Assembly: GCA_964588955.1 (NCBI GenBank) | Contig: CAZPQJ010000007.1 | Span: 3,128 to 67,127 of the forward strand | Source: an uncultured Gammaproteobacteria bacterium | GTDB lineage: Bacteria > Patescibacteriota > Patescibacteriia > UBA9934 > CAMTUG01 | Length of the DNA stretch: 64,000 nucleotides | Direction: 5' to 3' | In this document: piece by piece, positions 31,093-62,900 of the stretch | Layout: every line of letters starts with the position of its first letter | Numbering within the stretch: the stretch's first letter is position 1 | The notes under the pieces: model-generated | The model's database searches: none | Told to the model about the DNA's origin: nothing | Seen by the model: only the letters and a program-made list of their open reading frames with translations | Made by a program: the position numbers and the translations under genes

Positions 31093-31096
31093 ACAA

Positions 31097-31435
31097 TTAT
31101 TTTTTCTCCGGCTCTTGCGCGCGATCAATCGCGATCTTGCGAACAAGTTCCGTCAACTCTTTGTGATGCTGGTCTTGCCGCGCGGCCAAACGAAAAATCG
31201 TATAAAACAACACCGGCAAAGAAATGTACACCATCAAATCCGCGCCGCGTCCCACCCCAACAAGCTGGGCAATGACGTCTGTTGTCTGTGGACTAAAGGC
31301 CACTAAAATAACCAGCGCCCAAAACACCATCCACAAAAGAAACCAGCCCGCGGCAACTTTTTGCGCGCGGTATTGTTTATAAATACGCACGATCACGATC
31401 ACGGCAAAGGCGATTAAAAAAAGCTTGAAGAGCAT
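31097..31435 (-). CDS. DUF2304-family small membrane protein (GT2-associated)
   Basis: 112-aa ORF with 3 TM helices and a Q/H/E-rich C-terminus. It sits next to a Dpm1-like GT2 gene, as is typical for the family. Confidence 0.55.
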   Translation of the reverse strand: MLFKLFLIAFAVIVIVRIYKQYRAQKVAAGWFLLWMVFWALVILVAFSPQTTDVIAQLVGVGRGADLMVYISLPVLFYTIFRLAARQDQHHKELTELVRKIAIDRAQEPEKK

Positions 31436-47760: not shown

Positions 47761-49282
47761 TGACTTTCTCTTCCTCGCCTAACACCGCCACAAATCCTGC
47801 GTACATCCACAAGTAAATGGCTAGCGATCGCACTTCAAAAAAGGTCGCTAAGAACGCGTTGAGGGCAACAGCAATCATGGCACCAGCAAATCCAAAAGCC
47901 AGTGAGCAGATGAACGGATCTTTGCTCGCGCGCCCCACACGCAGAGCGTAGAAAAACAAGGCCAAGTACATCCACAAGAAAAATCCTATGCCAAGCGTGC
48001 CCGTTTCTCCCCAAATCGAAAACCAGTTATTGTCGATGTACCCCGCCGTTCCATATACGCCAAACGGCAAGCCAAGCGTGTCGTACACTTTGGTGTTGTG
48101 AAACAGAATCGCTGTTCCCCCGCCGTACATGCCTGGCCCCCAACCAAAAATCGGCGCGGCTGGCACAACACTGGTTACCGTTTGCACAACCCAAAACAAT
48201 CGCCCAAGTCCGTAGTACTCCCCTTGCCAACGTTCGTACGAGAAGGCTTCAAAGAACCGTTCGGCAACGGTTTGCTGCGGGACGTCGATCAGGCTATTAA
48301 CGATAATGCCCGTGTAGGCCAAATAGCCAACAATCACGGCAGCGATCACTCCGAGTCCAATCAGCACTTTGCGGTCGCGTCGCACATACAAGGCGATGAA
48401 CAAAAATCCCAAGACAAATCCAAACCAGCTCGAACGCGAGTACGTCAAAATGAGCGCGGGAATGCCGAGCAAAAAAAGCCACGGCAGTTCTTTACGCTCC
48501 GCGCGCACCAATTTTTCATACAAAAAGCTAGCGGCGATGATCAGGAAAAAAGCGAGAAACACCCCCAGGCGGTCGTAACGCCCAAGCGTGGCAAACACGC
48601 GGCTGCCCGCGTCCCAAAACTGAATTGTCCCTTCGGTAATCTGAAACTCGCCAAAAGTGCGTGTTTCTGATGGAAGCAAAAAGGTATCCAAAGGCGTACC
48701 AACAACGGCTTGCGTGAGCGCGATCGCCGCCTGCAGACAAACCACACCAAAAAGTACCATCGTCAATCGGTGGACAAAGGCTTTGTCGGGGCGCAACATG
48801 ATGACCGCAAAGTAAATGAGAATGAAACGGATGATGGAGCGAATACCAAACAAGGCAATCGTCGGATCAACTAAATTGAAGACACTGGAGGCGCCAAGAG
48901 CGATGAGGAAAAAGATGAACGGCATGGTCAATGGATTGGCACGAAACCGTTCGCCGCGGCTGAGCATGCGAATAAGTGCCACGACAAAAATGAGGTACAC
49001 CAATCCTTCAGAAAAAAATCTGGCGAATAGATACAAGTCGTCTGGCATCCACTTGAGCAAAAACGGTTCAAATGGCAAATAGACAGACAAAAACGCCAAG
49101 CTCCAGAGTGGCTTCACGATGGTCAAAAAAAGAAAAACAATGGCGATGAGCGTGCCAAGCACAAACGTTGGCGACAAAAAGACCACGCCAAGCACAGCAA
49201 ACACGAGCACAGCCAAAACAGAAACAAGAATAAGCGGCATGCGCTCGTCGCTGTGCTTATACGCCTCCCGCAAGTTGACCAT
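47756..49282 (-). CDS. O-antigen ligase/polymerase (Wzy_C) family membrane protein
   Basis: About 12 TM helices are present. The signature LILTYSRSSWFGFVLGF (Wzy_C motif) is present. The start is uncertain, between 49240 and 49354. TATAAT lies 9 nt upstream of the ATG at 49282. Confidence 0.7.
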   Translation of the reverse strand: MVNLREAYKHSDERMPLILVSVLAVLVFAVLGVVFLSPTFVLGTLIAIVFLFLTIVKPLWSLAFLSVYLPFEPFLLKWMPDDLYLFARFFSEGLVYLIFVVALIRMLSRGERFRANPLTMPFIFFLIALGASSVFNLVDPTIALFGIRSIIRFILIYFAVIMLRPDKAFVHRLTMVLFGVVCLQAAIALTQAVVGTPLDTFLLPSETRTFGEFQITEGTIQFWDAGSRVFATLGRYDRLGVFLAFFLIIAASFLYEKLVRAERKELPWLFLLGIPALILTYSRSSWFGFVLGFLFIALYVRRDRKVLIGLGVIAAVIVGYLAYTGIIVNSLIDVPQQTVAERFFEAFSYERWQGEYYGLGRLFWVVQTVTSVVPAAPIFGWGPGMYGGGTAILFHNTKVYDTLGLPFGVYGTAGYIDNNWFSIWGETGTLGIGFFLWMYLALFFYALRVGRASKDPFICSLAFGFAGAMIAVALNAFLATFFEVRSLAIYLWMYAGFVAVLGEEEKVI

Positions 49283-49309
49283 AATGGGATTATTATAACA
49301 CAAAGTCAA

Positions 49310-49338
49310 CGCCCCTGAAGGAGTTTCCTTCAGGGGCG
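49310..49338 (-). terminator. Terminator hairpin of the upstream lipoprotein gene (CCCCTGAAGG palindrome family)
   Basis: The sequence is cgcccctgaagg-agtttc-cttcaggggcg. Related hairpins lie at 57720..57757 and 52972..53005. Confidence 0.55.
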
Positions 49339-49449
49339 TAAGAATCTCTCGCACCCCTTCAGGAAGATCTCCCTTCAGGGCGCGTTGGCGGAGGTCGGTC
49401 CCGCTCTCTTGATACTCGACCTACAGCGGGACTTCTCCTCGCTGGATGC

Positions 49450-51042
49450 CTACTTCCAGTAGGCGTTGATGTAGGCGCCGTCGTTGGCGCCCGTCTTGGA
49501 GCCGTCGCCGTCGTCATCGGTCGAAACCGGGACGGCGAAGAGCGGAGCCTCGTCGTCGCGGTAGAGGTTGCCCACCACCGCGAACTCGTAGACGCCGTCG
49601 CCATCCGTGTCGCCGATGTTGGCGGCCCCCCATTGGACCTCGGCCCCGTCGAAGTACTCGACCTGGAGCACTTCGAACCCCGTGGGGAACTCCATCGGCT
49701 CGGAGACGATCTCGGTGGTCAGCACCCCGAAGTCGGCAGTGGCGATCACGGTCCACTCGAGGGTGTCCCAGCTCCAGGACCAGATCTGCCCCCCGTAGAA
49801 GCCCTCAGGGAGCTCCCAGGTGACGATCGAGAGGCCGTCGTCGATCTCCGTGCCGGTGTCGGCGGTATCGGCGTCGACAGCCGTGTCGGAGTCCTCGGTC
49901 CCGACGCCCGTGCCCGCGGTGTCCGCCGCGGAGTCGATGCCGGTCTCGACGGACCCGGTGGCCGTGTCGACCGTGCCGGTGTCGGTGGCCGTGTCGGAGT
50001 CGACCGCGGTGTCGGCCTCGGCGGTGTCGCTGTCCGCGACCGCGCCGGAGTCCGAGTCGACGAGCACGATACCGGAATCGCTCCCGGTGTCCGTGTCGCT
50101 GTCGACGCCGGTGTCGATCGCGCCGGTGTCGGTGTCCTCGGGCAGACAGTCGTCGCCCTCGTCCACCTGGCCGTCGCAGTCGTTGTCGATCTTGTCGCAC
50201 TCCTCGACGGCGCTCGGGTTGATGGCCTCCGCGTTGTCGTCGCAGTCGATCGCGCCGCTGACGGTGGTGAAACCGTCGCCGTCACAGTCGTTGTCGACGC
50301 ACGGGTCTTCCTCCGCGGAATCCGCCGCGGTGTCGGTGTCCCCGGTGCCGCCGGAGTCGACGGTGCCGGAGTCTTCGGGCTCGGCGCCCGTGTCGACGAC
50401 CTCGCAGCCCTCGTCGACCAGCCCGTCGCAGTCGTCGTCCCGCTCGTTGGAGCAGGTCTCGACCGCACCGGGGTTGACCGACTTGTAGTCGTCGTCACAG
50501 TCGCCCGGGAGGCTCGCGTCGGCGCACTCGGCGCCTTCACAGAACCCGTCGCCGTCGTTGTCGTATTCGCCGACCACGGTGCCGCTGTCAGCGTCCGTGT
50601 CGGAATCGGTGTCGGTGTCCGCGTCCGAATCCGTGTCGGCATCCGTGTCCGAGTCCGCATCGGTGTCGCTGTCGGAATCCGAATCGGTGTCCGAGTCCGT
50701 GTCAGCGTCCGTGTCGGAATCGGTGTCGGTGTCCGCGTCGGAGTCGGTGTCCGTGTCCGCCTCGCCGGTATCGACACTGCCGCTGCCGGCCGTGTCGACG
50801 ATCTCGCCGGTGTCGGTGTCCGTGCCCGAGTCCGTGTTGGTGTCCACGATCCCCGAGTCTTCCCCGGAGTCCGTCTCGACCGTTCCCGTCTCGGTGTCCG
50901 CCGTGTCGACCGGGGCGCTGTCGCCCGTGTCGATCTCGCCCGTCTCCCCCTGCTCGACGCTGCCGGTGTCGGCGACATCGTAGTCGAGGTCGATCGGGTT
51001 GCTGTCGCAGCCGACGAGGATCAAGCTGATGATCAGGAACAT
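49450..51042 (-). CDS. Lipoprotein with acidic (DTD/DSD)n tract and MopE-like Asp/Cys-rich 'putative metal-binding' repeats
   Basis: The lipobox is LILVGC. It is followed by tandem DxDxDGDGxxxxxDCDDxxxxxxPGAxExCxxxDxDCDG-type units and a W-rich C-domain. GC is ~67%. Confidence 0.7.
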   Translation of the reverse strand: MFLIISLILVGCDSNPIDLDYDVADTGSVEQGETGEIDTGDSAPVDTADTETGTVETDSGEDSGIVDTNTDSGTDTDTGEIVDTAGSGSVDTGEADTDTDSDADTDTDSDTDADTDSDTDSDSDSDTDADSDTDADTDSDADTDTDSDTDADSGTVVGEYDNDGDGFCEGAECADASLPGDCDDDYKSVNPGAVETCSNERDDDCDGLVDEGCEVVDTGAEPEDSGTVDSGGTGDTDTAADSAEEDPCVDNDCDGDGFTTVSGAIDCDDNAEAINPSAVEECDKIDNDCDGQVDEGDDCLPEDTDTGAIDTGVDSDTDTGSDSGIVLVDSDSGAVADSDTAEADTAVDSDTATDTGTVDTATGSVETGIDSAADTAGTGVGTEDSDTAVDADTADTGTEIDDGLSIVTWELPEGFYGGQIWSWSWDTLEWTVIATADFGVLTTEIVSEPMEFPTGFEVLQVEYFDGAEVQWGAANIGDTDGDGVYEFAVVGNLYRDDEAPLFAVPVSTDDDGDGSKTGANDGAYINAYWK

Positions 51043-51339
51043 GTGGGTCTCCTTGCAGGCACTCTGGCCTGCCATGGGTTCACGCTTTCAGGAACGTCTC
51101 AAACGCACAAACGTGGATTGCGCTCGAGAAAAGGGAGGAGATTCGGCTCCTTTGTCCTAGTTCCGCAACGATTTACCATCATCACGAAACAGGAAAATAT
51201 AGCATAAAAATGGGGTTTTGTCAATGGTACATGGCCAATATTGGCCAAAAAATGCCATTAAACGCGAAGACGCCGCCCGAGGAGTGAACCTGGGCGGACG
51301 TCGTTGGAGGTCAGGGCCCGGTCGGGTTGGTAGAAGCGG

Positions 51340-52857
51340 CTAGGGGGCGGTGATCATGCGGGAGTAGTCGCCGTCGCCGTCGGGGTCGACCAGGGTGACG
51401 GAGTTGGGCACCCCGTCCGTGCTGGAGTGGATGCTGGCCGAGGCGTCGTCGGCGAGCGAGGTGCCGTCCGGGAAGTAGGCGTCGACGGTGGCGCTGTCGC
51501 TGCCGCCGAGGCACAGGTCCATGGTGAAGGCGAAGTACCAGGAGGTGCCGCCGAGGAAGCTACTCGAGACCGTCACCCCGACCACGCCTTCCGGGGACCA
51601 CTCGCCGCTGAGCGCCGAGCCACCCCCGGTGACTTCGGCCACGAACGAGTCGGGCTGGCCGTTGTTGCTGTTCAACTCGACCAGGAACTCGCACGGATCC
51701 TCGTCGACGCTACCGTCACAGTCGTTGTCGAGGCCGTCGCTGCCCTTGTCGGCGGCGCCGGGGTGGATGGTGTCGTCGGTGTCGTCGCAGTCGTCGTCGT
51801 TGTCGACGTAGTCGGAGGGAGCCGTGCAACTCGTGAAGGTGTCACTCGGGTCGCCGTAGCCGTCCTCGTCGCCGTCGTAGTAGCGGGTGACCTCGTCGAC
51901 CGCGCGGTCGTGGATGTCGCCGTCGCAGTCGTTGTCCACGCCGTCGGTGGCGCAGGTCTCCGGGGCGCCGGTGTAGGTGGCGGCGTCGTAGTCGTTGCAG
52001 TCGAGGGTGTTGTCGACGAAGCCACCGGGCGCCTCGCAGCCTTCGGTGGAGGAGCTGGCGTTGCCCTGGCCGTCGGCGTCGACGTCGGCGTAGAAGGGAC
52101 TCATCACCCCCTCGTCGACGCTCTCGTCACAGTTGTCGTCGACGCCGTTGCAGGACTCGGGGGCACCGGGGTAGATGGTGCCGTCGTCGTCGTTGCAGTC
52201 GTCGGCGTTGGCCGACCACCCGGGGAAGGCCTCGCAGGCGAGGATCGTCGACGCGTTGCTGCCGTAGGTGTCGCCGTCGGCGTCGATGTAGATGGTGGTG
52301 TAGAGACCCTCCTCGTCCGTGTCGACCCAGGTGTCCCAGGTGTCGCAGTCGTTGGGCTGACCGTCACAGACCTCCGGCGCGCCGGGGTAGATCCAGGCGT
52401 TGTCGTCGTCGCAGTCCCAATGGAACTCGCTCGGGTCGCCGTCACCGTCCTCATCGTAGTAGTCGTCGTCGGTGAGCTGCTCGTAGGCGTCGGAGAGCTC
52501 CCCGCCGTTGGCTGCCACGAACTCCTCGAGGGTGTCGATGTCGCAGGCCATGGCCACGCCGTTGCTGTCGTTGAAGCCGTCGCCGTCGCTGTCCATGGCC
52601 CAGATGTTGTCGACGTGGTAGGTGTCGGCGTCGTCGGCCGCGCCGTCGCAGTCGTTGTCGACTCCTCCGTCGCACAGCTCGACCGCCCCGGGGTGGATGT
52701 TGGGGTCGGCGTCATCGCAGTCCCCGCCGAGCTCGGTGTAGCTGTCTCCGTCGTCGTCGACGTAGTAGCCCTTCTCGGTCGAACCCGACTTGTCAGTGGG
52801 ATTGCGACCGGTACCGGCACAGGCCGCGAGGAGGAGGATGAGGGAAAGGTAGCGCAT
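51340..52857 (-). CDS. Lipoprotein with MopE-like Asp/Cys-rich repeats
   Basis: The lipobox is LLLAACAG. There are 5 or more DCDD..PGA.E.C.G.DNDCDG repeats. GC is high. Confidence 0.7.
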   Translation of the reverse strand: MRYLSLILLLAACAGTGRNPTDKSGSTEKGYYVDDDGDSYTELGGDCDDADPNIHPGAVELCDGGVDNDCDGAADDADTYHVDNIWAMDSDGDGFNDSNGVAMACDIDTLEEFVAANGGELSDAYEQLTDDDYYDEDGDGDPSEFHWDCDDDNAWIYPGAPEVCDGQPNDCDTWDTWVDTDEEGLYTTIYIDADGDTYGSNASTILACEAFPGWSANADDCNDDDGTIYPGAPESCNGVDDNCDESVDEGVMSPFYADVDADGQGNASSSTEGCEAPGGFVDNTLDCNDYDAATYTGAPETCATDGVDNDCDGDIHDRAVDEVTRYYDGDEDGYGDPSDTFTSCTAPSDYVDNDDDCDDTDDTIHPGAADKGSDGLDNDCDGSVDEDPCEFLVELNSNNGQPDSFVAEVTGGGSALSGEWSPEGVVGVTVSSSFLGGTSWYFAFTMDLCLGGSDSATVDAYFPDGTSLADDASASIHSSTDGVPNSVTLVDPDGDGDYSRMITAP

Positions 52858-52933
52858 CTCGATTGACTCCGTTGGGGTGATCTCCCTAAGAAAAGCACTT
52901 GGAAACCCAGTAACTTCCGCATGGGGAGATAGG

Positions 52934-52962
52934 GTTATACCCAGGAACTGTCAAATTGTCAA
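52934..52962 (-). promoter_or_regulatory. Candidate promoter (TTGACA-N17-TATAAC) for the 51340..52857 gene
   Basis: On the minus strand, ttgaca is at 52962..52957 and tataac at 52939..52934. Confidence 0.4.
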
Positions 52963-53018
52963 TATAATGAGGATCCCCTCAGGAAGAGCGCTTCCCGAGG
53001 GGATCTTGAGAAACCCGG

Positions 53019-54629
53019 TCAAAACTTGCCGTCACAGTCGTCGTCGTAGGCGTCGTCGGGCGCGTCGTAGGCGCCGGGGTGGGTGGAGTCGTTGCTGTCG
53101 TCGCAGTCGCCGTTGTGGTCGACGTAGCCTTCCGGACAGATTCCGTCCTTGGCGGCAATCCCGCCCACGGAGTCGCCGTAGCCGTCGTTGTCGGCGTCCG
53201 GGAAGCAGGCCACTTCGCAGACGTTGTCTTCGTCGATGACGCCGTCACCGTTGTTGTCGACGCCGTCGCACTCCTCGACGTCACTGCAGTCCGCGATCCC
53301 GTCGCTGTCGGCGTCGAAACCTTCGTCAACCTCATCATCGCAGTCGTCGTCGAGGCCGTTGCAGATCTCTTCCGCGTCGGGGTTGATCGCCGCGTCGGCA
53401 TCGTCACAGTCGCCGCTCTCCGCGATGTAGCCAGAGGGCGCGCTGCAGTTCTCGATGCTGTCGCGACTGTCACCGAAGCCGTCGTTGTCGCCATCGTAGT
53501 ACCAGGTGGTGGCTCCGGTGGCGTCGGACTCGTCGGTGGTGCCGTCGCAGTCGTTGTCCGCGCTGTCGCAGACCTCGCTCGCGCCGGGGTTGATCGTCGA
53601 ATCGCCGTCGTCGCAGTCGCCCTTGGCTTCGACGTAGCCGCTCGGGGCGGTGCAGGTCGTCTCGCTCTTGCGGGCGAGGCCGTACCCGTCGCTGTCCGCG
53701 TCGAGGTAGAACGTGGAAGTGCCCACGGCGCTGTCGGGATCGATCTCGCCATCGCAGTCGTCGTCGAGGCCGTTGCAGGTCTCGATCGCGTCCGGGTTCA
53801 CTTCCGCGCTCGTGTCGTCGCAGTCGCCCGCGTCCACCACGTAGCCCGAGGGCTCGTAGCAACTGACGACCGCGTCGCCCGGGTTGCCGAAGCTGTCACC
53901 GTCGTTGTCCGCGAACCAGGTCGGGGCACCGAAGGCGTCGCCCTCGTCGACGCTGCCATCGCAGTCGTTGTCGAGGCCGTCGCAGTACTCGGTAGCGCCC
54001 AGGTGCACGCCCACGTCGGCGTCGTTGCAGTCGTCGGCGTTCTCGACGTACTCCTCGGGCACGGAACAGGCCAGGGTGGAGGAACTCGCGTTCCCCTGCC
54101 CGTCGCCGTCCGCGTCTTCGTAGAACGTCAGCTCGACGCCTTCGTCGACGCCCCCGTCGCAGTCGTTGTCCGCACTGTCGCAGACTTCGCTCGCGCTCGG
54201 GTTGACGTCGCTGCGCGCGTCGTCGCAGTCGTTGGCGTTCACGACGTAGCTCGGGATCTCCACGCAGGTGGTGATCTCGATGCTGGCGTCGCCGTAGCCG
54301 TCGCCGTCGCCGTCGAAGTAGCGCGCGTCGCCATCGTCGCTCTCGCCATCGCAGTTGTCGTCCACGCCGTTGCCGCAGATCTCGGCCACGCCAGGGTTGA
54401 CGCTCGCGTTGTTGTCGTCGCAGTCGGCCTCAGCGCCGTAGCCGTCGCCGTCGTTGTCCGTGTCGACGACCCCACCGCTGTCGCTGTCGACGTTGGTGTC
54501 GCTGTCGTCGCCGCCGGTCTCGACGTTGCCGGTCTCTTCGACCGAATCGGCCGAGTCGACATCGTCCGAATCCCCGTTGTACGGGGGCAGGAACATGTCC
54601 ATGCAGGCACTCAAAAGGAGCAAGATCAC
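53019..54629 (-). CDS. Lipoprotein with MopE-like Asp/Cys-rich repeats
   Basis: The lipobox is LLLSAC. There are ~9 repeats of the form DADGDGxG....C.....YV....DCDD.....NPGA.E.C...DNDCDG. Confidence 0.7.
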   Translation of the reverse strand: MILLLLSACMDMFLPPYNGDSDDVDSADSVEETGNVETGGDDSDTNVDSDSGGVVDTDNDGDGYGAEADCDDNNASVNPGVAEICGNGVDDNCDGESDDGDARYFDGDGDGYGDASIEITTCVEIPSYVVNANDCDDARSDVNPSASEVCDSADNDCDGGVDEGVELTFYEDADGDGQGNASSSTLACSVPEEYVENADDCNDADVGVHLGATEYCDGLDNDCDGSVDEGDAFGAPTWFADNDGDSFGNPGDAVVSCYEPSGYVVDAGDCDDTSAEVNPDAIETCNGLDDDCDGEIDPDSAVGTSTFYLDADSDGYGLARKSETTCTAPSGYVEAKGDCDDGDSTINPGASEVCDSADNDCDGTTDESDATGATTWYYDGDNDGFGDSRDSIENCSAPSGYIAESGDCDDADAAINPDAEEICNGLDDDCDDEVDEGFDADSDGIADCSDVEECDGVDNNGDGVIDEDNVCEVACFPDADNDGYGDSVGGIAAKDGICPEGYVDHNGDCDDSNDSTHPGAYDAPDDAYDDDCDGKF

Positions 54630-54868
54630 GGGACCTCCAGGGTAGGATAATCTTCAAAACAGAGCAGGCCCCTATTTTGAAGATCGGTTGGGGAAAAGTG
54701 CTAATCGTTGCTTTTGGCCTGACTTATGCCCTTGTCAGTCCAAAAACACCTCTCAAATTAGCCTTGTTTTCCTTGTCCGCGAACTGTAGTTCTTATCACG
54801 ATAATCAAGAAACGTCAAGCAATTGCGCCTCCCCAGGGAGTACCCGGGGAGGCGCAAGCAGTCAGGGA

Positions 54869-56722
54869 CTAGCCGTCGATGATGCCGTCGCAGTCGTCGT
54901 CGAAGCCGTTGCAGGCGGCCTCAGGGGTGACACCATCGTCCCCCAGGCAGTCTTCGGCGCCCGGGTGAACCCCGGAGTCCTCGTCGCTGCAGTCGCCGTC
55001 GCAGACGGTGTAGCCATCGCCGTCCGCGTCAGTGGTGTCCGTATCCGGGTTGATACCGGCATCGTTATCGTCGCAGTCGTCGGCGTTGTCAACGTAACCT
55101 TCGGGCGCCACACAGGCGTCGTAGGTGACGCTCGCGTCGCCGAAGCCGTCGCCATCGGCGTCGGCGTAGAACGTGCTGGTGTCGATCGCGGAGTCTTCGT
55201 CCACGTCGCCGTCGCAGTCGTTGTCGACGCCGTCGCAGAGTTCGTCGGCGTCGGGGTTGATCAACGGATCCATGTCGTCGCACTCGGAGCACGCTGCGAA
55301 CCCATCGCCATCCGCGTCTTCGACCCCCACCGACCCATCGCAGTTGTAGTCGAGGCCAGCGTTACAGGCCTCGGGCGCGCCGGGGTAGTAGGCGGCATCG
55401 CTGTCGTCGCAGTCGTCGACGTTGTCGACGTAGCCCTCCGGCGCCACGCAAGCGTCGTAGGTGACGCTCGCGTCGCCGTAGCCGTCGCCGTCCGCATCGG
55501 CGTACCAGGTGCTCGCGTCGATCGCATCGTCCTCGTCCACGTCGCCATCGCAGTCGTTGTCGACCTCGTCGCAGAGCTCGTCGGCGTCGGGGTTGATGTC
55601 GACGTTGGAGTCGTCGCAGTCAGTGGTGGTTCGCGCGTAGCCAACGACGCTACCGCAGGAAATGATCGATCCAGAGGGATCGCTCGATCCGTAGCCATCG
55701 TCGTCAGCATCAAGGTAGAGCGGCACCGCGTCCAGCGCGGAGTACTCATCCGTCTCCCCGTCGCAGTCGTCGTCCTTGCCGTTGCAGTACTCGTCGGCGT
55801 CGGGGTAGATGGCTGCGTCGCTGTCGTTGCAGTCAACGTCGCTCGTGTAGCCGTCGCCGTCGAGATCGACAGGCGCGGTGTCGACGATCACGCCACTGTC
55901 ACCGGTGTCGGCCGTGTCGATCGTACCGGTGTCACCCGTGTCCGTGGTGTCGACGATCCCTCCGGTGTCGGTGTCGATCGCGGTGTCCACGGTGTCACCC
56001 GTGCCAGTGTCGCCGGTGTCGGCCGTGTCGACCGTACCGGTGTCGGTGTCCTCAAGCGGACAGATCTCGCCTTCGTCCACGTCGCCGTCGCAGTCGTTGT
56101 CCGCGCTGTCGCAGACTTCGGTGGCGCCGGGGTTGATGGCGTAGCTCGTGTCGTCACAGTCGTCCCCGTTGAAGACATACCCAATGGGGATGTCGCACTG
56201 CACCTGGATGGTCGAGGCGTCGCCGTAGCCGTCGTGATCCGCATCCTCGTACAAGGTGAACATGTCCTCGGCGGCGTTGTCGACATAGCCGTCGCAGTTG
56301 TCGTCGAGGTTGTTGCACGCCTCGAGCGCGCCGGGGTGAACGGCCGCGTCGGAGTCGTCGCAATCGTCGGACTCCAGCACCCAGGCTGCGCCATCGGAAG
56401 GCTGGCTGCAGCTTTCGTAGGCATCCTCGGTTTTGCCGTAGCCGTCGCCGTCGAGATCGAGGTACCAGGTACGTGTTCCCTCTTCGTCGACCTCGCCATC
56501 GCAGTCGTTGTCGACATCATCGCAGACTTCGGTGGCGTCCGGGTGGACGGCCGCATCGTTGTCGTCGCAGTCCTCGTCGGAACCGTAGCCGTCGCCGTCC
56601 GCGTCAAGCGCGGGCAGGCTGACGGAATCGTCAATCGCCGTCTCGTCGTTTCCGCCCTTCCCCGAGTCTTGCGGGAGGGGGCAGCCAGCGAGAAGAAACA
56701 GGAACAGGATGAAGGAACGCAT
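54869..56722 (-). CDS. Lipoprotein with MopE-like Asp/Cys-rich repeats
   Basis: The lipobox is LLAGC and the start is at MRSFILF. The C-terminus reads DCLGDDGVTPEAACNGFDDDCDG and is shared with the next gene. Confidence 0.7.
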   Translation of the reverse strand: MRSFILFLFLLAGCPLPQDSGKGGNDETAIDDSVSLPALDADGDGYGSDEDCDDNDAAVHPDATEVCDDVDNDCDGEVDEEGTRTWYLDLDGDGYGKTEDAYESCSQPSDGAAWVLESDDCDDSDAAVHPGALEACNNLDDNCDGYVDNAAEDMFTLYEDADHDGYGDASTIQVQCDIPIGYVFNGDDCDDTSYAINPGATEVCDSADNDCDGDVDEGEICPLEDTDTGTVDTADTGDTGTGDTVDTAIDTDTGGIVDTTDTGDTGTIDTADTGDSGVIVDTAPVDLDGDGYTSDVDCNDSDAAIYPDADEYCNGKDDDCDGETDEYSALDAVPLYLDADDDGYGSSDPSGSIISCGSVVGYARTTTDCDDSNVDINPDADELCDEVDNDCDGDVDEDDAIDASTWYADADGDGYGDASVTYDACVAPEGYVDNVDDCDDSDAAYYPGAPEACNAGLDYNCDGSVGVEDADGDGFAACSECDDMDPLINPDADELCDGVDNDCDGDVDEDSAIDTSTFYADADGDGFGDASVTYDACVAPEGYVDNADDCDDNDAGINPDTDTTDADGDGYTVCDGDCSDEDSGVHPGAEDCLGDDGVTPEAACNGFDDDCDGIIDG

Positions 56723-56870
56723 CGTTTTCTCCGGTCTTGGTGGGTGGGTCATACGGCTCTTTTGGTTTAGAGCCGACAAAGAAACCTACACGTTAAAGAC
56801 CAAAAAGTCAAGGGTTAAGACGTCATTACGCCTCCCCAGGGAGTACCCGGGGAGGCGTAAAAGTCAGGGA

Positions 56871-57473
56871 CTAGCCGTCCTTCTTGCCGTCACAATCGTC
56901 GTCGATGCCGTTGCAGCCTGCCTGCGGGGTGACCCCGTCATCGGCCAGGCAATCTTCTGCGCCCGGGTACATGCCGTTGTCCGCGTCGTTACAATCGCCG
57001 GCGCAAGTCGTGTAGCCATCGCCGTCGCTGTCGAAGCCTTCATCAACGCCGCCGTCGCAGTCGTCGTCGAGGCCGTCGCAGATCTCCATGGCGTTCGGGT
57101 TGATGACCGAGGAGGTGTCGTCACAGTCGGTGTTGTCGACCACGTAGCCCGCGACTTCCTCGCAGGAGGTGACCATCGCGCCCGCGTCCCCGAAGCCGTC
57201 GGCGTCGAGGTCGAGGTAGTAGAGGGTGGCGTCCGTGGCCGCGTTGTCCACTTGGCCGTCGCAGTTGTCGTCGAAGCCGTTGCAGACTTCTTCTGCCCCG
57301 GGGTAGACGCTCGCGTTGTCATCGTCACAGTCGTCGCCGAACACGAACCCGTCGTGGTCGCTGTCGATCTGATCGACGCCCGCTGTGGAATCGACCACTT
57401 CCGACGCCGTGTCGACATCGTTGAGTTGGATCGACGCAGAGGAACAGGCCAGCAAGAAGATAATCAAGGACAT
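56871..57473 (-). CDS. Small lipoprotein with MopE-like repeats (paralog of 54869..56722)
   Basis: The lipobox is LLACSS. The C-terminus reads DCLADDGVTPQAGCNGIDDDCDG. A ~50-nt 3' region including a terminator hairpin is shared with 54826..54877. Confidence 0.7.
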   Translation of the reverse strand: MSLIIFLLACSSASIQLNDVDTASEVVDSTAGVDQIDSDHDGFVFGDDCDDDNASVYPGAEEVCNGFDDNCDGQVDNAATDATLYYLDLDADGFGDAGAMVTSCEEVAGYVVDNTDCDDTSSVINPNAMEICDGLDDDCDGGVDEGFDSDGDGYTTCAGDCNDADNGMYPGAEDCLADDGVTPQAGCNGIDDDCDGKKDG

Positions 57474-57719
57474 GGATGATCTCCGGTAGAGATATGGATG
57501 CCATTTGCAGGTCTCTTGTAATCAAGAGCCAACAAAGAAACCTACACGCCGGAAGCCGAAAGGTCAAGGGTGGTAATACGTGGATTTTCAAAAAACGCCA
57601 GCTGCAAGGCGCGGGGAAGCCGGCGAAGGAGCCGTATCTAAACATACGGCGACAAGACGGCGGGGCCCCGCAACACAGCAGATGGCGGAATTTTGGAAAT
57701 CCATAATCCAAAATATGAA

Positions 57720-57757
57720 GCGCCCCTGAAGAAGAGAGAGCTTCCTTCAGGGGCGCA
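57720..57757 (-). terminator. Terminator hairpin (CCCCTGAAG palindrome) after the 57824 gene
   Basis: gcgcccctgaag-aagagagagcttc-cttcaggggcgc is followed on the sense strand by a T-rich tract. Confidence 0.55.
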
Positions 57758-57823
57758 AAGAGTTTCTTCGTCGCGCCCCCTTGGGAAGATTCCTCTTCTT
57801 CAGGGGCGCCTCGTTGTGCCGGG

Positions 57824-59158
57824 CTAGTAGCGCGTGGACCAGATCCAGTCACCGATGATGTAGGCGATCAACTCGCCCCCGTCTTCGACACCCGACTCCT
57901 TCGAGTAGGTGTAGTAGACCTCGGAGACGCCGGACCCCGAGGAGTCCGTGCAGACCCAGGAGATTTCTCCCCGGATCTCCACGTCGTCGGTGCCCTCGCC
58001 GGTCGACTCGACCGAGAAGTTGACGCCGTCGCCGTTGACGCAACCCGCGTTGATGCGGGCGGCCTCACCGGACTCCATCGTGTACACCTCGGAGATGGTG
58101 TCGGTGCTCGACGCGGTCGTGCCCAGGGACGAATCCCAGGACCAGCCAACGCTCGTCGCGACCTCCGCCTCGGTGTACATGGCCGCGCACTCCTCGGGCG
58201 AGACCCAGGTGAACGTACAGGTGTACGTCTCCGAGCCCGAGCCCGTGTCGCCGGTGTCGGTCGTGTCCTCGATGCAGGCGGCGGGGTTGCCCTCGCCGTC
58301 GTCACCGCACACCTTCCCGGCGGACGCGCAGTCGTAGGACTCGACCGCGGTGTGCTCCTCGTTGCAGTAGTACGTCACATCCCCGACGCACTTGGGGTAC
58401 TCGGAGCAGTCGATGCCCGACCCAGTGTCGCCGGTGTCCTCGCAGGCGTCGCCCTCGTCCACGCTGCCGTCGCAGTCGTTGTCGATCCCGTCGCACTTCT
58501 CGGTGGCGCCGGGGTTGACCTCGGGGTTGGCGTCGTCGCAGTCGACATCGTCGTAGCCGTCGTCGTCCGCATCGTCGTCGGCACAGGCGTCACCTTCGTC
58601 GGAGTGGCCATCACAGTCGTCGTCGAAGCCGTTGCAGGTCTCGGTGGCGCTGGGGTTGATGGCCCAGTTCCCGTCGTCGCAATCGCCTTCGTCCTCGGTG
58701 TAGCCGTCGCCGTCCGCGTCGTCGTCGGTGTCGCAGTCCTCGTCGATCGAGCCGTCGCAGTCGTTGTCCACGCCGTTGCCGCAGATCTCGGACGCGCCGG
58801 GGTAGACGCTGGCGTCGCTGTCATTGCAGTCGACACCTTCGCCGTAGCCGTCGTTGTCGACGTCCGTGTCGGTCTCGCAGACTTCATCGACGTCGCCGTC
58901 GCAGTCGTCGTCGAGGCCGTTGCACTTCTCGGTCGCGCCGGGGTAGATGGCGGAGGAGGTGTCGTCGCAGTCAACGTCGTCGCCGTAGCCGTCGCCGTCG
59001 GCATCGACCGGACCGGTGTCCGTGTCGGTGTCGCCGGTCTCGGCCGTCTCGCCGGTCTCCGCGGTCTCGTGGGAGTCCGCGGTGTCGACCGAGCCGGTGT
59101 CTCCGACGTCGGTACGGATGTTGTTGGCAAGCCCGCAGGCCATCAGGGTGATCAACAT
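57824..59158 (-). CDS. Lipoprotein with MopE-like repeats and a Cys-rich C-terminal domain
   Basis: The lipobox is LMACG and the start was chosen at MLITLMACG. There are 6 repeats, followed by a C-domain rich in C/W/Y. Confidence 0.65.
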   Translation of the reverse strand: MLITLMACGLANNIRTDVGDTGSVDTADSHETAETGETAETGDTDTDTGPVDADGDGYGDDVDCDDTSSAIYPGATEKCNGLDDDCDGDVDEVCETDTDVDNDGYGEGVDCNDSDASVYPGASEICGNGVDNDCDGSIDEDCDTDDDADGDGYTEDEGDCDDGNWAINPSATETCNGFDDDCDGHSDEGDACADDDADDDGYDDVDCDDANPEVNPGATEKCDGIDNDCDGSVDEGDACEDTGDTGSGIDCSEYPKCVGDVTYYCNEEHTAVESYDCASAGKVCGDDGEGNPAACIEDTTDTGDTGSGSETYTCTFTWVSPEECAAMYTEAEVATSVGWSWDSSLGTTASSTDTISEVYTMESGEAARINAGCVNGDGVNFSVESTGEGTDDVEIRGEISWVCTDSSGSGVSEVYYTYSKESGVEDGGELIAYIIGDWIWSTRY

Positions 59159-59194
59159 GGGGTGATACTCCGCGGCTTCAAGCCGCGCTCGCAC

Positions 59195-59432
59195 TGTTAC
59201 GGGAACCGGAAACTCACACAGGATTGTGCGTCCGTCGTCGTTGTCCAGGAATTGAACCTTTCGGACGGACGGAAGTTGGGGAACAGGATTGGGAGATAAA
59301 GATGGAGAAAGAGGGAGAAAAATGGATATTGGGAAAAAATTCTTTTCCCTTTCTCCTATCTCCTATTTTCTCCTACTTTTTCTCTATCCACCCAATTCCA
59401 CAACTTCCATCCGCCTATACAGATTCAATCTC
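59195..59432. repeat. Upstream module copy 1 (~240 bp): conserved 5' leader hairpin plus GGAGAAA-rich palindrome, directly upstream of the 57824..59158 gene
   Basis: It runs ggaaccggaaactcacacaggattgtgcg-tccgtcgtcgttgtcc...gaacctttcggacggacggaagttgggg, then ggagataaagatggagaaagagggagaaaaatggatattggg...ttcttttccctttctcctatctcc, then ccacaacttccatccgcc. It matches 61069..61292. Confidence 0.7.
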
Positions 59433-59534
59433 AGGTAACTGATCTTGTAAAGAACCCTCGCAGACCACGAACGTTTCATGATCTCTGAGAGTGGGTCCTC
59501 GGACTGTGTGCCGAGAACCCATCGAACGTCGAAC

Positions 59535-61028
59535 CTACTCCTCCTCGGACTCGGTCTGCTTGGCGCGGGCGGCGTCGGCTTCGGCCTTGGCTTGCGCCTG
59601 GGCTTCCAGCCGCGCCCTCTTCTGGTCGGCGAACTCGAGGCGATCACTGCCGACGATCGCCATCTTCAAGGAGAAGATCGCGCCGACACCCGCCGTGTCA
59701 TCGGTCCGCTCGTTGTGCTCCAAGGTGATGATCTGGACCCCCGTGTTGTAGGTGACCTGACCGGCCGCCTCGAACGCGAAGTTCCCGACCCGGAAGTCCC
59801 CGAAGCCGCTGAGGCCATAGAGGACTCCGCCGACCTGGGACTCCATGAGGGCGTCCTGGTCGAACAGACCGACCTGGACACCGTGCAGACCGATCACCCC
59901 GCCGATGCCGATCTCGTTGATCGGCTTCGCGTAGACACTGAACGTGCCCGCGTAGCCCAACGAGTCACCGGACAGGATCGCGCTGTAGCCACCGAACGCG
60001 GCACGGGCGTAGCGGTGATCGACGCCGAGGTGCGCTACCAGACCCGGGCCGATGAGCCCGGTGTCGAGGACGACACCCCCACCGATGCCGAGGGTGGGCC
60101 AGAACGCGCGGTTGTGCGCGTCCTTGAGCTCGGTGGTACGGACGTAGGCGGTGTCCGCGGTCTTGCGGACGGCGTCCACGATCTCGAGGGATCCCTTGAT
60201 CTCCTCGATCCGCAGGGAGTTCTCGGTCTGGAGCCCATCGATCTTCCCCTCGGCCGTCGCGAGACGACCGTTGGTCTTCACGAGCTCGCTCTGCTCGGCC
60301 TTGCCGTCGAGGCGCTTGCCGAGCAAGATCGCCGCGGCGAAGGACGAGTCCGTGGCGGAGGAGCAGTACACACTGTCTCCGCTCACCACGGTCCAGACCC
60401 CTTCGGCTCGGTTGATGGTGTACCCGTCCGGGACGCTCTGCGTGGCGGCGTAGGCGAACCCCACCGTCTCGCAGAAATCGACCCGCTGCATCTCCGCGAG
60501 GATCTTGGAGTGCTCGTCCACGGTGGCCGAGACCTTCTTCACCTCGCCGGCGGCCCAGTTGGCGGTGCGCTTCGCGTCCATCGCATCGACGACGTCCCGG
60601 TTGCCCGAGTCGGCGTCGATCGCCACCTCACACTTGAGGACGTCGGAGTCGAAGTTGAAGACGAAGCCGTCCTTCTCGCACACCGGCCGTCCGGCCTTGT
60701 CGCTCCACACCAGGCCAGAGACGGAACCGAAGTTCCCTCCGCCGATGATGGGGCGCTCGAGGTCGGACTTCCGCCAGTGGCGGATGGTGCCGTGGACGCG
60801 GTAGGACAACTCGACGGCGGCCCGCAGGCTCACCGGCTCGTCGGCCTTGGCGTCGCAGTCCGTCTTCGGGCACTCGTCCTTCTTCGGCTCGGCCTTCTTC
60901 TCGTCCGCGGCGACCGTGGTCGTCGTGGTCGTGGCCGTCGTGGCGGTGGTGGTGGCCGGGGTGGTCTTCGCGCTGGGGTTGGCGCCCGCAAACGCGGGAG
61001 CGGAAACGAGAACCAGGGAGATCAACAT
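59535..61028 (-). CDS. Secreted protein with a Thr-rich linker and a Gly-rich beta-strand (porin/OMP beta-barrel-like) C-region
   Basis: A signal peptide reads MLISLVLVSAPAFAGA. (T/A)n and CPKTDCD follow. Alternating Gly/hydrophobic segments and an Ala/Glu-rich helical tail follow. GC is high. Confidence 0.55.
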   Translation of the reverse strand: MLISLVLVSAPAFAGANPSAKTTPATTTATTATTTTTTVAADEKKAEPKKDECPKTDCDAKADEPVSLRAAVELSYRVHGTIRHWRKSDLERPIIGGGNFGSVSGLVWSDKAGRPVCEKDGFVFNFDSDVLKCEVAIDADSGNRDVVDAMDAKRTANWAAGEVKKVSATVDEHSKILAEMQRVDFCETVGFAYAATQSVPDGYTINRAEGVWTVVSGDSVYCSSATDSSFAAAILLGKRLDGKAEQSELVKTNGRLATAEGKIDGLQTENSLRIEEIKGSLEIVDAVRKTADTAYVRTTELKDAHNRAFWPTLGIGGGVVLDTGLIGPGLVAHLGVDHRYARAAFGGYSAILSGDSLGYAGTFSVYAKPINEIGIGGVIGLHGVQVGLFDQDALMESQVGGVLYGLSGFGDFRVGNFAFEAAGQVTYNTGVQIITLEHNERTDDTAGVGAIFSLKMAIVGSDRLEFADQKRARLEAQAQAKAEADAARAKQTESEEE

Positions 61029-61068
61029 GTCAGACTCCGTTGCGGCATTCTAGCCGCGTTGAGCACTC

Positions 61069-61292
61069 TTGGAACCGGGAAACTCACGCAGAATTGCGCG
61101 CCCGTCCGTTGTGTCCTTTTGGGTATTGAACCTTTCGGACGGACGGAAGTCGGGGTGGGAAGATAAAATAGGAGAAATGAGGAGAAAGAAGGATATTGGG
61201 GAAGACTTTCTCCCTTTCTCCTATTTTCTCCATCTTTTTCTTTTTATCCTTCCAAGATCCACAACTTCCATCCGCCACGATCAATTCAATCC
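61069..61292. repeat. Upstream module copy 2 (matches 59195..59432), directly upstream of the 59535..61028 gene
   Basis: The layout is the same three parts. The GGAGAAA palindrome is ataggagaaatgaggagaaagaaggatattggggaagactttctccctttctcctattttctcc. Confidence 0.7.
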
Positions 61293-61330
61293 AATCTATT
61301 TTGAGTAGGTTCAGTTGTAATGAACACCGA

Positions 61331-61725
61331 TAAGGTTCGACATAGCTCAGAAACGAGGAGGAGGCGTTCTGAACGACATCAAACCGTATCGAAGGTCATT
61401 TTTAGGGACAATTCGCAGATCTTGCGAACGCCTAAAAGTAGCAGGAAATTGGGTTTTTGTCAAGGGGTTTGTGGAGAAAATGGGAAAAATAGGAGAAATA
61501 AGGAGAAAATGGGAGAAAAATACCAAAACAAAACAACGTCCGCTTTATCGACCTGAGAATCACCTGTCGTGATGAGGAGGAGGCATCATGACCGTGCGGT
61601 CTCAGGCCGGCAAAAGGGGCGTTGTGGCGGGCACCTTACCAAAGCCCCGAGGGGGCGTCAAGAAGGTTATAAACAATAGAAAAATAGGAGAAATAAGGAG
61701 AAAGTTGGAGAAAAGTGACAAAAGC
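61331..61725. repeat. Tandem ~190-bp duplication (two units) ending in GGAGAAA-rich tracts
   Basis: Unit 1 runs gaggaggaggcg ... gtcaagggg ... aaaataggagaaataaggagaaaatgggagaaaa. Unit 2 runs gaggaggaggca ... gtcaagaagg ... aaaataggagaaataaggagaaagttggagaaaa. The shared DNA is read in different frames by the two small track ORFs. It is therefore judged non-coding. Confidence 0.5.
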
Positions 61726-62090
61726 TATTTTTTCGAAGCCAAATCTTTTGTCGAGAAAATATATCTATTTAACAACACTTGAACCGCCCGTAATTGTGCG
61801 CGCAACAACTCTGCGTCTATAATCTGAACTTTTCCCCGCTCCAATAAGAGGTCCGTCCAATGCAGTGCTTCAATGAGAGATCCACGCGCATTGTAGTTAA
61901 ACTTGTTGCGATCAAGAAAATGAAATCTTCCAAACCCCTCCGCGATATTCGCGCCAATGGAATCAATAGCAGAAATCCACTGATCCCCAATCACTTTCTT
62001 TGTTTGCCAATCGAATTTATCATAAAGAAGCCAGGCGCATTTTGATATTTGCCTGGCCTCACGGTAAACAGCGAGATCATATAAATCCAT
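61725..62090 (-). CDS. Four-helix-bundle protein (23S rRNA-intervening-sequence protein family)
   Basis: 121-aa ORF with the family-typical IANNIAEG-like core (GANIAEGFGR) and length. Confidence 0.7.
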   Translation of the reverse strand: MDLYDLAVYREARQISKCAWLLYDKFDWQTKKVIGDQWISAIDSIGANIAEGFGRFHFLDRNKFNYNARGSLIEALHWTDLLLERGKVQIIDAELLRAQLRAVQVLLNRYIFSTKDLASKK

Positions 62091-62132
62091 ATCCCCTTTC
62101 TCTTTTCTCCTTCTTTCTCCTACTTTTTCCCT

Positions 62133-62765
62133 CTATCCTTCATGAATCAACTGATGTCGACGACGAATGCGTTCTGCTTTTAACATGACAAAGGCTACGC
62201 CCGCCAAGCCACCAAGAACGGCTCCGGCGAAGGCGTTCAAGGGAATGTTGGGTCGCACCGGCCAGCGGGAGTTTAAGGGGTCATCGACTAATTGAATGCT
62301 GATCGATCCACCAGAGGTGTACTGCCAACCTTCGGTCACAATCACGCTCGAAAGCGCGCGGGCAATGAGTTCCGCTTGGGCAACATCTGGGTGATAGACA
62401 GCGATGGTGAGCAACCCTGTGCCGCGCGTTACCGTAGCGGCGACGGTTTTACCCCAAGTCTTGCGGCGCTTGTTGGCATCGGTGGGAAAGTAATCGCGGT
62501 CGATTTGACTAGAGGTAGCCATCACTTTGTCGAAGAAGGTGGTGGTGTAAATGACGTTGGTAATGTCTTCGGCCACGCGCTCGGCCGAACGACTGGCGGT
62601 GTAGGCATCAACGGTGCCAAGTTGTTGAATGATCAGCAAGCGTACGGTGGAGCTATAGGCCAACGGACGCAACAGAGAAAGCACCACACCCAACAAAATA
62701 CCAACAGCGGCCATGATGACAATGCTGTGCCAAAAATTTAACAAGGCGGAAGTATGGCGGGACAT
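62133..62765 (-). CDS. Polysaccharide chain-length determinant (Wzz/CapA/YveK-like co-polymerase)
   Basis: Two TM helices are present, at the N-terminus and at the C-terminus (GGLAGVAFVML). A periplasmic domain lies between them and a basic tail follows. Confidence 0.6.
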   Translation of the reverse strand: MSRHTSALLNFWHSIVIMAAVGILLGVVLSLLRPLAYSSTVRLLIIQQLGTVDAYTASRSAERVAEDITNVIYTTTFFDKVMATSSQIDRDYFPTDANKRRKTWGKTVAATVTRGTGLLTIAVYHPDVAQAELIARALSSVIVTEGWQYTSGGSISIQLVDDPLNSRWPVRPNIPLNAFAGAVLGGLAGVAFVMLKAERIRRRHQLIHEG

Positions 62766-62900
62766 AGAAAGATAAAAATAAAAAGTAGGAGAAAAAAGGA
62801 GAAAGGAGAAAGTGGGATAAACGGAGAAAATAGGATATTGGGGAAAGGACTTTCCCCTTTCTCATACTTTATCTTTTCTCCATCTTTTTTTTATCTCTTT
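62765..62900. repeat. GGAGAAA-rich palindromic element (copy outside the high-GC island)
   Basis: The sequence is gtaggagaaaaaaggagaaaggagaaagtgggataaacggagaaaataggatattggggaaaggactttcccctttctcatactttatcttttctcc. Confidence 0.6.

Follow-up and report, generated by a model that had tools for sequence, protein, structure and literature searches.

We analysed a 64,000-nucleotide (nt) stretch of DNA (contig CAZPQJ010000007.1 of assembly GCA_964588955.1, positions 3,128 to 67,127; hereafter the window), in which two similar segments stand in front of two adjacent minus-strand genes, one for a secreted orphan protein and one for a MopE-repeat lipoprotein. On balance, we favour the view that the duplicated segment is a three-layered module that works at the level of RNA, as a repeated leader and intercistronic element of one operon, and that it is not a promoter. 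The two copies, termed B and A in the order of transcription, and the genes that follow them are listed here.

61014 to 61325, minus strand: module copy B, the block before the gene for the 497-amino-acid (aa) secreted orphan protein (local alignment and blastn)
59144 to 59455, minus strand: module copy A, the block that follows the orphan gene and precedes the gene for the MopE-repeat lipoprotein (MAFFT, blastn and local alignment)
59535 to 61028, minus strand: gene for the 497-aa secreted orphan protein, with a signal peptide and a Thr-rich linker; GC content at third codon positions (GC3) 0.92
57824 to 59158, minus strand: gene for the 444-aa MopE-repeat lipoprotein, N-terminus MLITLMAC; PF11617, E = 4e-41; GC3 0.93

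The two copies proved to be homologous over about 312 nt. A local alignment of A with B on the minus strand spanned 336 columns, with an identity of 72% when gaps were counted and about 84% at positions aligned in both, and MAFFT gave a mean column identity of 79%. In a sensitive blastn comparison against the 64-kb window the copies matched each other at 74% over 301 columns (E = 1.7e-44), and neither copy detected a third full copy anywhere in the window. An earlier reading of this DNA, made without database searches (the sequence-only reading), had recognised the repeat, and that part stands. Its coordinates were too narrow: homology reaches further on both sides, at the 5' end to a GTTCWTTACAA motif and at the 3' end past the ATG into the coding sequence, through ATGTTGATC(A/T)CCCTG, which encodes MLIT/SL, the first five codons. 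Each copy lies directly 5' of a minus-strand start codon (59158 for A and 61028 for B), as had been claimed; CGGAGT precedes the start codons of both genes, and the GC3 of 0.92-0.93 confirms the minus-strand open reading frames (ORFs) as genes. The difference in base composition that had been noted was also found, the GC content being 44.5% and 46.4% in the two copies and 67% in both coding sequences. We rejected an assembly artefact or chimera, because A and B differ at about 16-28% of positions, the two-copy layout is also present in independent assemblies, and high-GC genes lie on both sides of A.

When folded as minus-strand RNA, most of each copy forms one long imperfect hairpin of about 180 nt, and the whole leaders of the two copies reach -114 and -107 kcal/mol (z-scores of -7.0 and -6.7). 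In this one hairpin ccacaacttccatccgcc and ggacggacggaagttgggg form the outer arms, with the GGAGAAA part between them, and the GGAGAAA/UUUCUCC arrays make up its upper two thirds. We refer to the arms as seg1, GGCGGAUGGAAGUUGUGG (core GGCGGAUGG), and seg2, CCCCRACUUCCGUCCGUCC (core CCGUCCGUCC). The hairpin base is closed by GAUUGAAU:GGUUCAAU, in which GGUUCAAU, which resembles a tRNA T-loop, is the 3' strand. Each leader runs in the order UUACAA motif, long hairpin, a third segment (seg3), a small hairpin (P4), a hairpin proximal to the Shine-Dalgarno (SD) sequence, GGAG and AUG, as follows.

61119 to 61294, minus strand: main long hairpin of B; minimum free energy (MFE) -76 kcal/mol, z-score -7.1, sense more stable than antisense; base GATTGAAT:GGTTCAAT, outer stem GGCGGATGGAAGTTGTGG:CCCCGACTTCCGTCCGTCC
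59250 to 59430, minus strand: main long hairpin of A; MFE -83 kcal/mol, z-score -8.6
61102 to 61109, minus strand: seg3 of B, ACGGACGG, complementary to the 3' arm CCGTCCGT, giving an alternative helix
59228 to 59235, minus strand: seg3 of A, ACGGACGC
61085 to 61100, minus strand: small hairpin P4 of B, CGCGCAATTCTGCGTG
59215 to 59230, minus strand: small hairpin P4 of A, CGCACAATCCTGTGTG
61026 to 61058, minus strand: SD-proximal hairpin, GGAG and ATG of the orphan gene
59156 to 59187, minus strand: SD-proximal hairpin, GGAG and ATG of the MopE-repeat lipoprotein gene

In P4, a G-C pair of B is an A-U pair in A, a compensatory change, and at the same place three relatives (L019, L020 and L021; see below) have, by eye, a hairpin of different sequence. 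A leader hairpin had been proposed before, with the pairing tccgtc..ggacggacgg; the hairpin is present, and the pairing then given is the alternative one, of the 3' arm with seg3. No intrinsic terminator was found on the minus strand in the module hairpins, terminator-like matches being confined to the plus strand, inside the palindrome. The idea that GGTTCAAT marks a tRNA-like or attachment (att) site was rejected, because no tRNA was detected and the motif is a strand of the hairpin base that covaries with its partner.

Going by the names of their homologues, the PF05635 and Wzz-like proteins encoded in the window place the organism in the Patescibacteria, or candidate phyla radiation (CPR), near Candidatus Uhrbacteria. 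We compared seven genomes, namely the window and six relatives (L015, L019, L020, L021, L022/23 and L024/25), which together provided 13 leader copies. They have a common gene order: DUF5656 (not called in L022/23), PDZ protease, Wzz-like gene, an intergenic region of about 550 nt, an orphan gene of 450-497 aa, a spacer of 220-370 nt, and lipoprotein. The first intergenic region is conserved throughout, with the promoters P1 and P2 and the RNA elements R1 and R2 described below in the order P1, R1, P2, R2, module. In the window and in L015, L019, L020, L022 and L024, the second spacer carries a shorter paralogue of the module, starting near TTTACAA; the duplication is therefore old and not specific to the window. 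All 13 leader copies have the main hairpin, the evidence being per-sequence folds compared with shuffles (z-scores of -4.6 to -10.9), and in 12 of them the mRNA strand folds more stably than its complement. The apical halves of the main hairpins are unalignable among copies, yet they are paired in every case. Taken together, these results show that the structured leader is ancient and stands before both neighbouring surface-protein genes across an Uhrbacteria-like clade of the CPR.

Further copies were also sought elsewhere. A scan of species-representative genome contigs with CCTTTCGGACGGACGGAAGT returned only two chance matches in coding sequences (Promethearchaeota and a Luteolibacter metagenome-assembled genome), the source genome evidently not being included; a scan of metagenome contigs with GGAGAAANNNGGATATTGGGRAA returned only seven chance matches, in low-GC coding or repeat DNA; and a 20-mer of the module had no match in viral contigs. 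In every locus examined, the signature motifs are confined to the two leader positions and to the coding strand. Neither a widely portable cassette nor an element specific to the window agrees with this confinement and with a pair of copies that is old and clade-wide.

The leaders fall into two types. Type I is marked by CCGTCCGTCC / RAAGGTTCAA (CGUCCGUCC/GGACGGACG) and type II by CCCGCCYGTCC / TGGTTCAAACC (CGCCCGUCC/GGACGGGCG). In L015, L019 and L024 the orphan gene is preceded by type I and the gene after it by type II, whereas the window has type I at both positions and L020 and L022 have type II at both. From this distribution we conclude that one copy replaced the other, with a direction that differs among lineages. 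For the window, the comparison shows copy A as apparently overwritten by the B type, through gene conversion or replacement of about 312 nt that reached into codon 5, and the near-identity of A and B would be due to this replacement. Between A and B, seg1 and seg2 with the base are 100% identical, whereas the inserted GGAGAAA part is about 75% identical with insertions and deletions, suggesting that the event was not very recent and that the stems are under constraint. The earlier proposal of a shared 5' leader before two unrelated secreted proteins is upheld, and the two type-I copies in the window, set against the I/II arrangement of L015, L019 and L024, add that the leader has been exchanged between positions.

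The features that bear on transcription of the two genes are the following.

61435 to 61463, minus strand: promoter P2, TTGACA-N14-TGcTACTTT, present upstream of B only and not within the duplicated block
61315 to 61434, minus strand: leader hairpin R2, just after P2, with the apical loop CCUCCUCC
61522 to 61661, minus strand: R1, a hairpin RNA of about 100 nt with the apical loop GCCUCCUCCUC (anti-SD-like), ending in a U run
61633 to 61661, minus strand: promoter P1 of R1, conserved in six of the seven genomes
57595 to 57612, minus strand: first terminator-like site on this strand downstream of P2, after the MopE-repeat lipoprotein gene

The module had been taken for a promoter, but a promoter scan found no -35/-10 pair at a spacing of 16-18 nt within 59144-59455 or 61014-61325, and the conserved P2 lies outside the module and upstream of B only. 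The P2 motif, TTGACA-N14-TGnTAnnnT, is present at the same place in all seven genomes, 110 nt upstream of B. R2 comprises 39 pairs, 15 of which show compensatory changes across the seven genomes, and its 3' basal strand is the GTTCATT that opens module B; its loop could pair with the GGAG(G) SD sequence of the downstream genes. R1 is likewise conserved in the seven genomes, with compensatory changes in 14 of 35 pairs, and has the appearance of either a small RNA gene or a leader that terminates. Scanning of the minus strand between the orphan and MopE genes gave neither a promoter-like nor a terminator-like site. With no site near A and no terminator between P2 and 57612, one transcript would run from P2 through both genes.

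In the window lineage, the GGAGAAA palindrome is an element in its own right, 103-116 nt long and inserted into the tip of the main hairpin; its arms (GGAGAAA/UUUCUCC) have a 10-nt period (GGAGAAA-N3). The insertions and the related elements nearby are listed here.

61156 to 61258, minus strand: apical insertion in B, with periodic GGAGAAA/TTTCTCC arms and a GGATATTGGG loop; without an ORF, similar to an intervening sequence (IVS)
59282 to 59397, minus strand: apical insertion in A, of the same family as that in B
61678 to 62141, minus strand: ORF-bearing element, a PF05635/TIGR02436 gene (61725 to 62090) for a 121-aa protein, between a GGAGAAA arm (62093 to 62141) and a TTTCTCC arm (61678 to 61717)
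62766 to 62890, minus strand: hairpin C, the third of the GGAGAAA hairpins without an ORF, located between the genes for the PDZ protease and the Wzz-like protein

The insertion is absent from the orthologous hairpins of L019, L020, L021, L022 and L024, and the main hairpin measures 45-81 nt where it lacks arrays, 125-133 nt in L015 and 176-181 nt in the window. L015 carries GTAAGCA heptamers at the same tip, the motif found in the arms of a PF05635 element 1.5 kb upstream there. The palindrome was therefore not an original part of the leader, although it had been counted as part of the module. In L022, the main hairpin of the second leader copy (12568-12648) bears at its tip a small AT-rich GTAATTA/TAATTAC hairpin, so that L022 is a third lineage with a tip insertion. 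The insertion in B matches the arms at 62093-62141 and 61678-61717 and the hairpin at 62766-62890. Insertion arms and the arms of the neighbouring PF05635 element, whose gene sits 0.4 kb upstream of the module, are 82% identical over 56 nt (E = 6e-8) in the window and 77-83% identical in L015. The inverted arms that flank the PF05635 gene and the insertion in the window belong to one family, and the insertion is therefore an ORF-less IVS-like element. The ORF-less tip of L015, GGAGACAC-loop-GTCTCCAC, corresponds to the arms of the element joined at the borders of its ORF (GGAGACACT-ATG...TAG-TATCTCCAC). The array hairpin of L015 is at the tip of both its type-I and its type-II leader, which points to independent tip insertion or short-patch copying.

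All seven PF05635 genes that we examined lie between inverted arrays of a short periodic motif, and control genes do not (window 61678-62141; L011 300-790; L012 9960-10440; L015 8860-9320 and 9960-10420; L016 9920-10420 and 13750-14220). The motif is particular to each element (GGAGAAA, GTAATAA, GTAAGYR, AGAAATT, TTGAGATAA and others), and in the gene tables returned the PF05635 genes point the same way as their neighbours on either side. These elements have terminal inverted repeats that pair into a long stem; among those of the window, only the element at 61678-62141 has a PF05635 ORF in the loop, the insertions in A and B and hairpin C having a loop of 20-30 nt. The junction between the PDZ protease and Wzz-like genes holds the ORF-less hairpin C in the window and an ORF-bearing PF05635 element in L015 (8868-9332); it is uninserted in six other relatives, one of which, with an 89%-identical Wzz-like protein, has a 4-nt gap there. 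This pattern indicates recurrent gain, or precise loss, and together with the occupied tip in L015 it suggests repeated tip-directed insertion or short-patch copying from the neighbouring element. Comparison with uninterrupted hairpins (L019, L021 and L024) and with the PDZ-Wzz junctions gave no clear target-site duplication, the tips being too diverged, and no transposase-bearing parent with matching ends was found, the only ORF between matching arms being PF05635.

Within the 64 kb, the GGAGAAA family comprises three ORF-less hairpins, one ORF-bearing element and two solo arrays, all but one within 3.7 kb. One solo array (61464-61521) consists of four TTTCTCC repeats, in the minus-strand reading, in a T-rich spacer directly upstream of the -35 of P2; relatives have an ordinary T-rich spacer at the equivalent place. 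The other, a triple GGAGAAA-N3 array at 30459-30495, lies in frame in a family-4 glycosyltransferase-like ORF (30022 to 31146, minus strand), where it encodes ...SFLLLSPSFS..., and could be a chance occurrence or a captured half element.

If the module is a leader and intercistronic element of one operon, both genes would be transcribed from P2 as one mRNA, on which the module would serve as the leader of the first cistron and, in its second copy, as the intercistronic region for the next. There it would form a double-stranded processing or stabilising site, by analogy with rRNA intervening sequences probably a substrate of RNase III, and it would give each cistron the same translation-initiation region. 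The choice between seg1:seg2 and seg2:seg3, together with the CCUCCUCC loop of R2 upstream, could modulate access to the SD sequence. The insertion at the tip would lengthen the helix and leave the base unmoved, which would explain why it is tolerated.

Several points weigh against this account. CPR promoters may differ from the consensus that was scanned, so that there may be a weak promoter before A, and we infer co-transcription, RNase III cleavage and the stabilising roles alike. Covariation analysis of the main hairpin with MAFFT and RNAalifold foundered on 5' arms made unalignable by length variation, and the hairpin limits, being taken from sense folds, slightly favour the sense strand in the strand comparison, where several differences are below 2 kcal/mol. 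The direction and timing of the conversion are also uncertain: part of the tract may have run from A to B, and the common ATGTTGATC start resembles the native MopE start of L015 (MLLLTLMAC).

A conformational switch, similar to a riboswitch or attenuator, is an alternative that we consider unlikely. Here seg2 would pair with either seg1 or seg3, as decided by a ligand, a protein or the CCUCCUCC loop of R2/R1, and the choice would set the translation or stability of the cistron. The complementarity of seg2 with seg3 exceeds that of shuffles in 10 of the 13 copies, at a constant distance, and this is the sole helix that RNAalifold recovers from the raw alignment. The type-I pair CGUCCGUCC/GGACGGACG and the type-II pair CGCCCGUCC/GGACGGGCG change together, and R2 with its anti-SD-like loop is conserved, including the 15 compensatory pairs. 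However, the MFE structure prefers seg1:seg2 every time, and given the likeness of seg1 to seg3, the complementarity could simply have arisen from an internal repeat of long standing. Neither a terminator nor an SD-sequestering partner for seg3 was found. Rfam 15 gave no family match at the gathering score for the leader, R1 or R2; at E values up to 10 there were only far sub-threshold matches (microRNA-precursor and other unrelated families), and none for R1 or R2. In addition, the tip insertion of about 100 nt, which stabilises seg1:seg2 further, would be expected to lock such a switch.

We also think it improbable that the locus is neutral DNA without a role in expression, in which a segment from upstream was duplicated long ago and a selfish palindromic repeat was added. 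The inserted hairpin family does resemble a selfish element in being gained and lost between close relatives, and the downstream genes evolve very fast. Neutrality would not readily account for a leader hairpin retained at both positions in seven genomes despite sequence turnover, for the bias towards folding of the sense strand and a signature found on the coding strand only, or for stems conserved at 100% between A and B when the insertion is at about 75%.

Still less probable, in our judgement, is that the GGAGAAA repeats, with their period of about 10 nt, are DNA or double-stranded RNA sites for a multimeric protein, possibly the neighbouring PF05635 four-helix-bundle protein, which would control both genes. 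Most arrays have the 10-nt period, each PF05635 gene has its own arm motif, and S23p relatives in Coxiella form pentamers (PMC4990558). A search for the triple GGAGAAA array in viral contigs found 16 phage contigs with direct arrays of this period, lacking an inverted partner, iteron-like by eye and unrelated to the hairpins. But L015 has 7-nt tandem repeats at the same position, five relatives have the leader without an array, so that arrays are not needed for the leader, and we found no evidence of sequence-specific binding by PF05635 proteins.

That a promoter of its own in each module drives each gene separately, as the sequence-only reading proposed, seems to us very improbable: both copies open with a -35-like TTTACA/ATTACA and every other gene of the surrounding high-GC block has its own TTGAC-17-TAnnnT promoter and its own terminator hairpin, but the scan is empty, no relative has a -10 conserved 16-18 nt after TTACAA, the GTTCATT that opens B is the 3' strand of the R2 stem, and the strong conserved P2 precedes B only.

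The two genes served by the module belong to a 12-kb minus-strand block (49000-61000) of MopE-repeat lipoproteins and the orphan, with a GC3 of 0.84-0.93 in a CPR genome of about 51% GC; the spacers within the block keep a host-like GC content. The orphan and lipoprotein genes of the locus are GC-rich in every relative examined, and the block is therefore old in the clade. The label of MopE-repeat lipoprotein was confirmed by PF11617. A porin-like label for the 497-aa protein found no support: it has no Pfam or NCBIfam match, no homologue in a word-indexed search and no exact-protein record, an exhaustive search returned two weak relatives among 1.8 billion representatives, and a single-sequence AlphaFold model was unusable (predicted local distance difference test, pLDDT, 36). 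Elsewhere in the block, two other minus-strand genes have a common promoter and leader, CCCTTGACyTTT...GTGTAGGTTTCTTTGTyGGCTCT, at 56780-56870 and 57474-57560, with a GGCTCT/AGAGCC hairpin after it; here, too, an upstream region is duplicated. In two relatives, genes for IS200/IS605-type Y1 transposases edge the high-GC surface-protein block (L015 20008-20372; L022 14256-15110).

Among known systems, the inserted elements are most readily set beside the S23p/PF05635 intervening sequences of rRNA genes. The S23p IVS of Coxiella has a 28-bp inverted-repeat stem, tandem GACAGAT heptamers beside its ORF, and excision by RNase III (PMC4990558), and reports on CPR rRNA genes describe PF05635 ORFs as well as short insertions without an ORF, seated at helix tips (PMC11270868). 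Like these elements (Coxiella, Leptospira and Xanthomonas; 16S and 23S rRNA of the CPR), those described here have a terminal inverted-repeat stem, tandem short repeats near the ORF, a four-helix-bundle ORF in the loop, short ORF-less versions, and a seat at the tip of a pre-existing RNA helix. Unlike them, they lie in mRNA leaders or between protein genes, Rfam finding only two tRNA-Pro genes and no rRNA in the window, and the insertions in A and B have no ORF. Cutting here would sever or trim an mRNA rather than fragment an rRNA, and excision by RNase III is a prediction. As far as we found, the literature describes PF05635 elements only within rRNA insertions.

The Correia or NEMIS elements of Neisseria are 100-160-nt hairpins with inverted ends that are co-transcribed in 5' untranslated regions (UTRs) and intercistronic spacers, are cut by RNase III, alter mRNA stability, and vary in presence between close strains. 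Our elements resemble these miniature inverted-repeat transposable elements in their terminal inverted repeats and their placement in leaders and spacers. They differ in that no TA target duplication or integration host factor site was seen, the arms consist of periodic short repeats, and the ORF-bearing relative encodes PF05635 and not a transposase. The leader itself recalls the 5' stem-loop stabilisers and long leaders of envelope or S-layer mRNAs, such as the ompA 5' UTR, in which structure is conserved and sequence is free. Both place a stable hairpin near the 5' or processed end of mRNAs for secreted surface proteins, where processing in our case is conjectural. Unlike such leaders, the module is repeated before a second cistron, has an alternative pairing partner, and in the window lineage carries an inserted repeat. 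The history of the two copies parallels the gene conversion and concerted evolution of paralogous regulatory regions, as in rRNA operon leaders and tufA/tufB: paralogous segments within a genome are more alike than orthologues, and the direction differs by lineage. In contrast with those cases, the tract consists of about 312 nt of non-coding leader plus five codons, before unrelated proteins.

For annotation, the locus teaches that near-identical upstream cassettes can come from conversion of old paralogous leaders and not from a portable promoter. To our knowledge, the S23p/PF05635 intervening sequence has been a curiosity of rRNA genes for about 30 years, its origin, mobility and protein role unexplained. 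The locus shows an element of this kind, an inverted periodic-repeat stem with or without an ORF, inside protein-coding operons of CPR bacteria, and the filled and empty sites among close relatives are a natural set for studying how such elements move and affect transcripts. We tentatively raise the possibility, which we would not yet call likely, that PF05635 elements are a mobile CPR family that settles at transcribed hairpin tips and between the cistrons of ordinary mRNAs as well as in rRNA, and that ORF-less derivatives become processing or control modules of operons. Bolder still, and speculative, is the idea that the cognate four-helix-bundle protein recognises the periodic arms. We know of almost no work on gene regulation in CPR bacteria, and for them this locus defines a clade-specific system of structured leaders, made of R1, R2 and the repeated hairpin module, before fast-evolving surface proteins.

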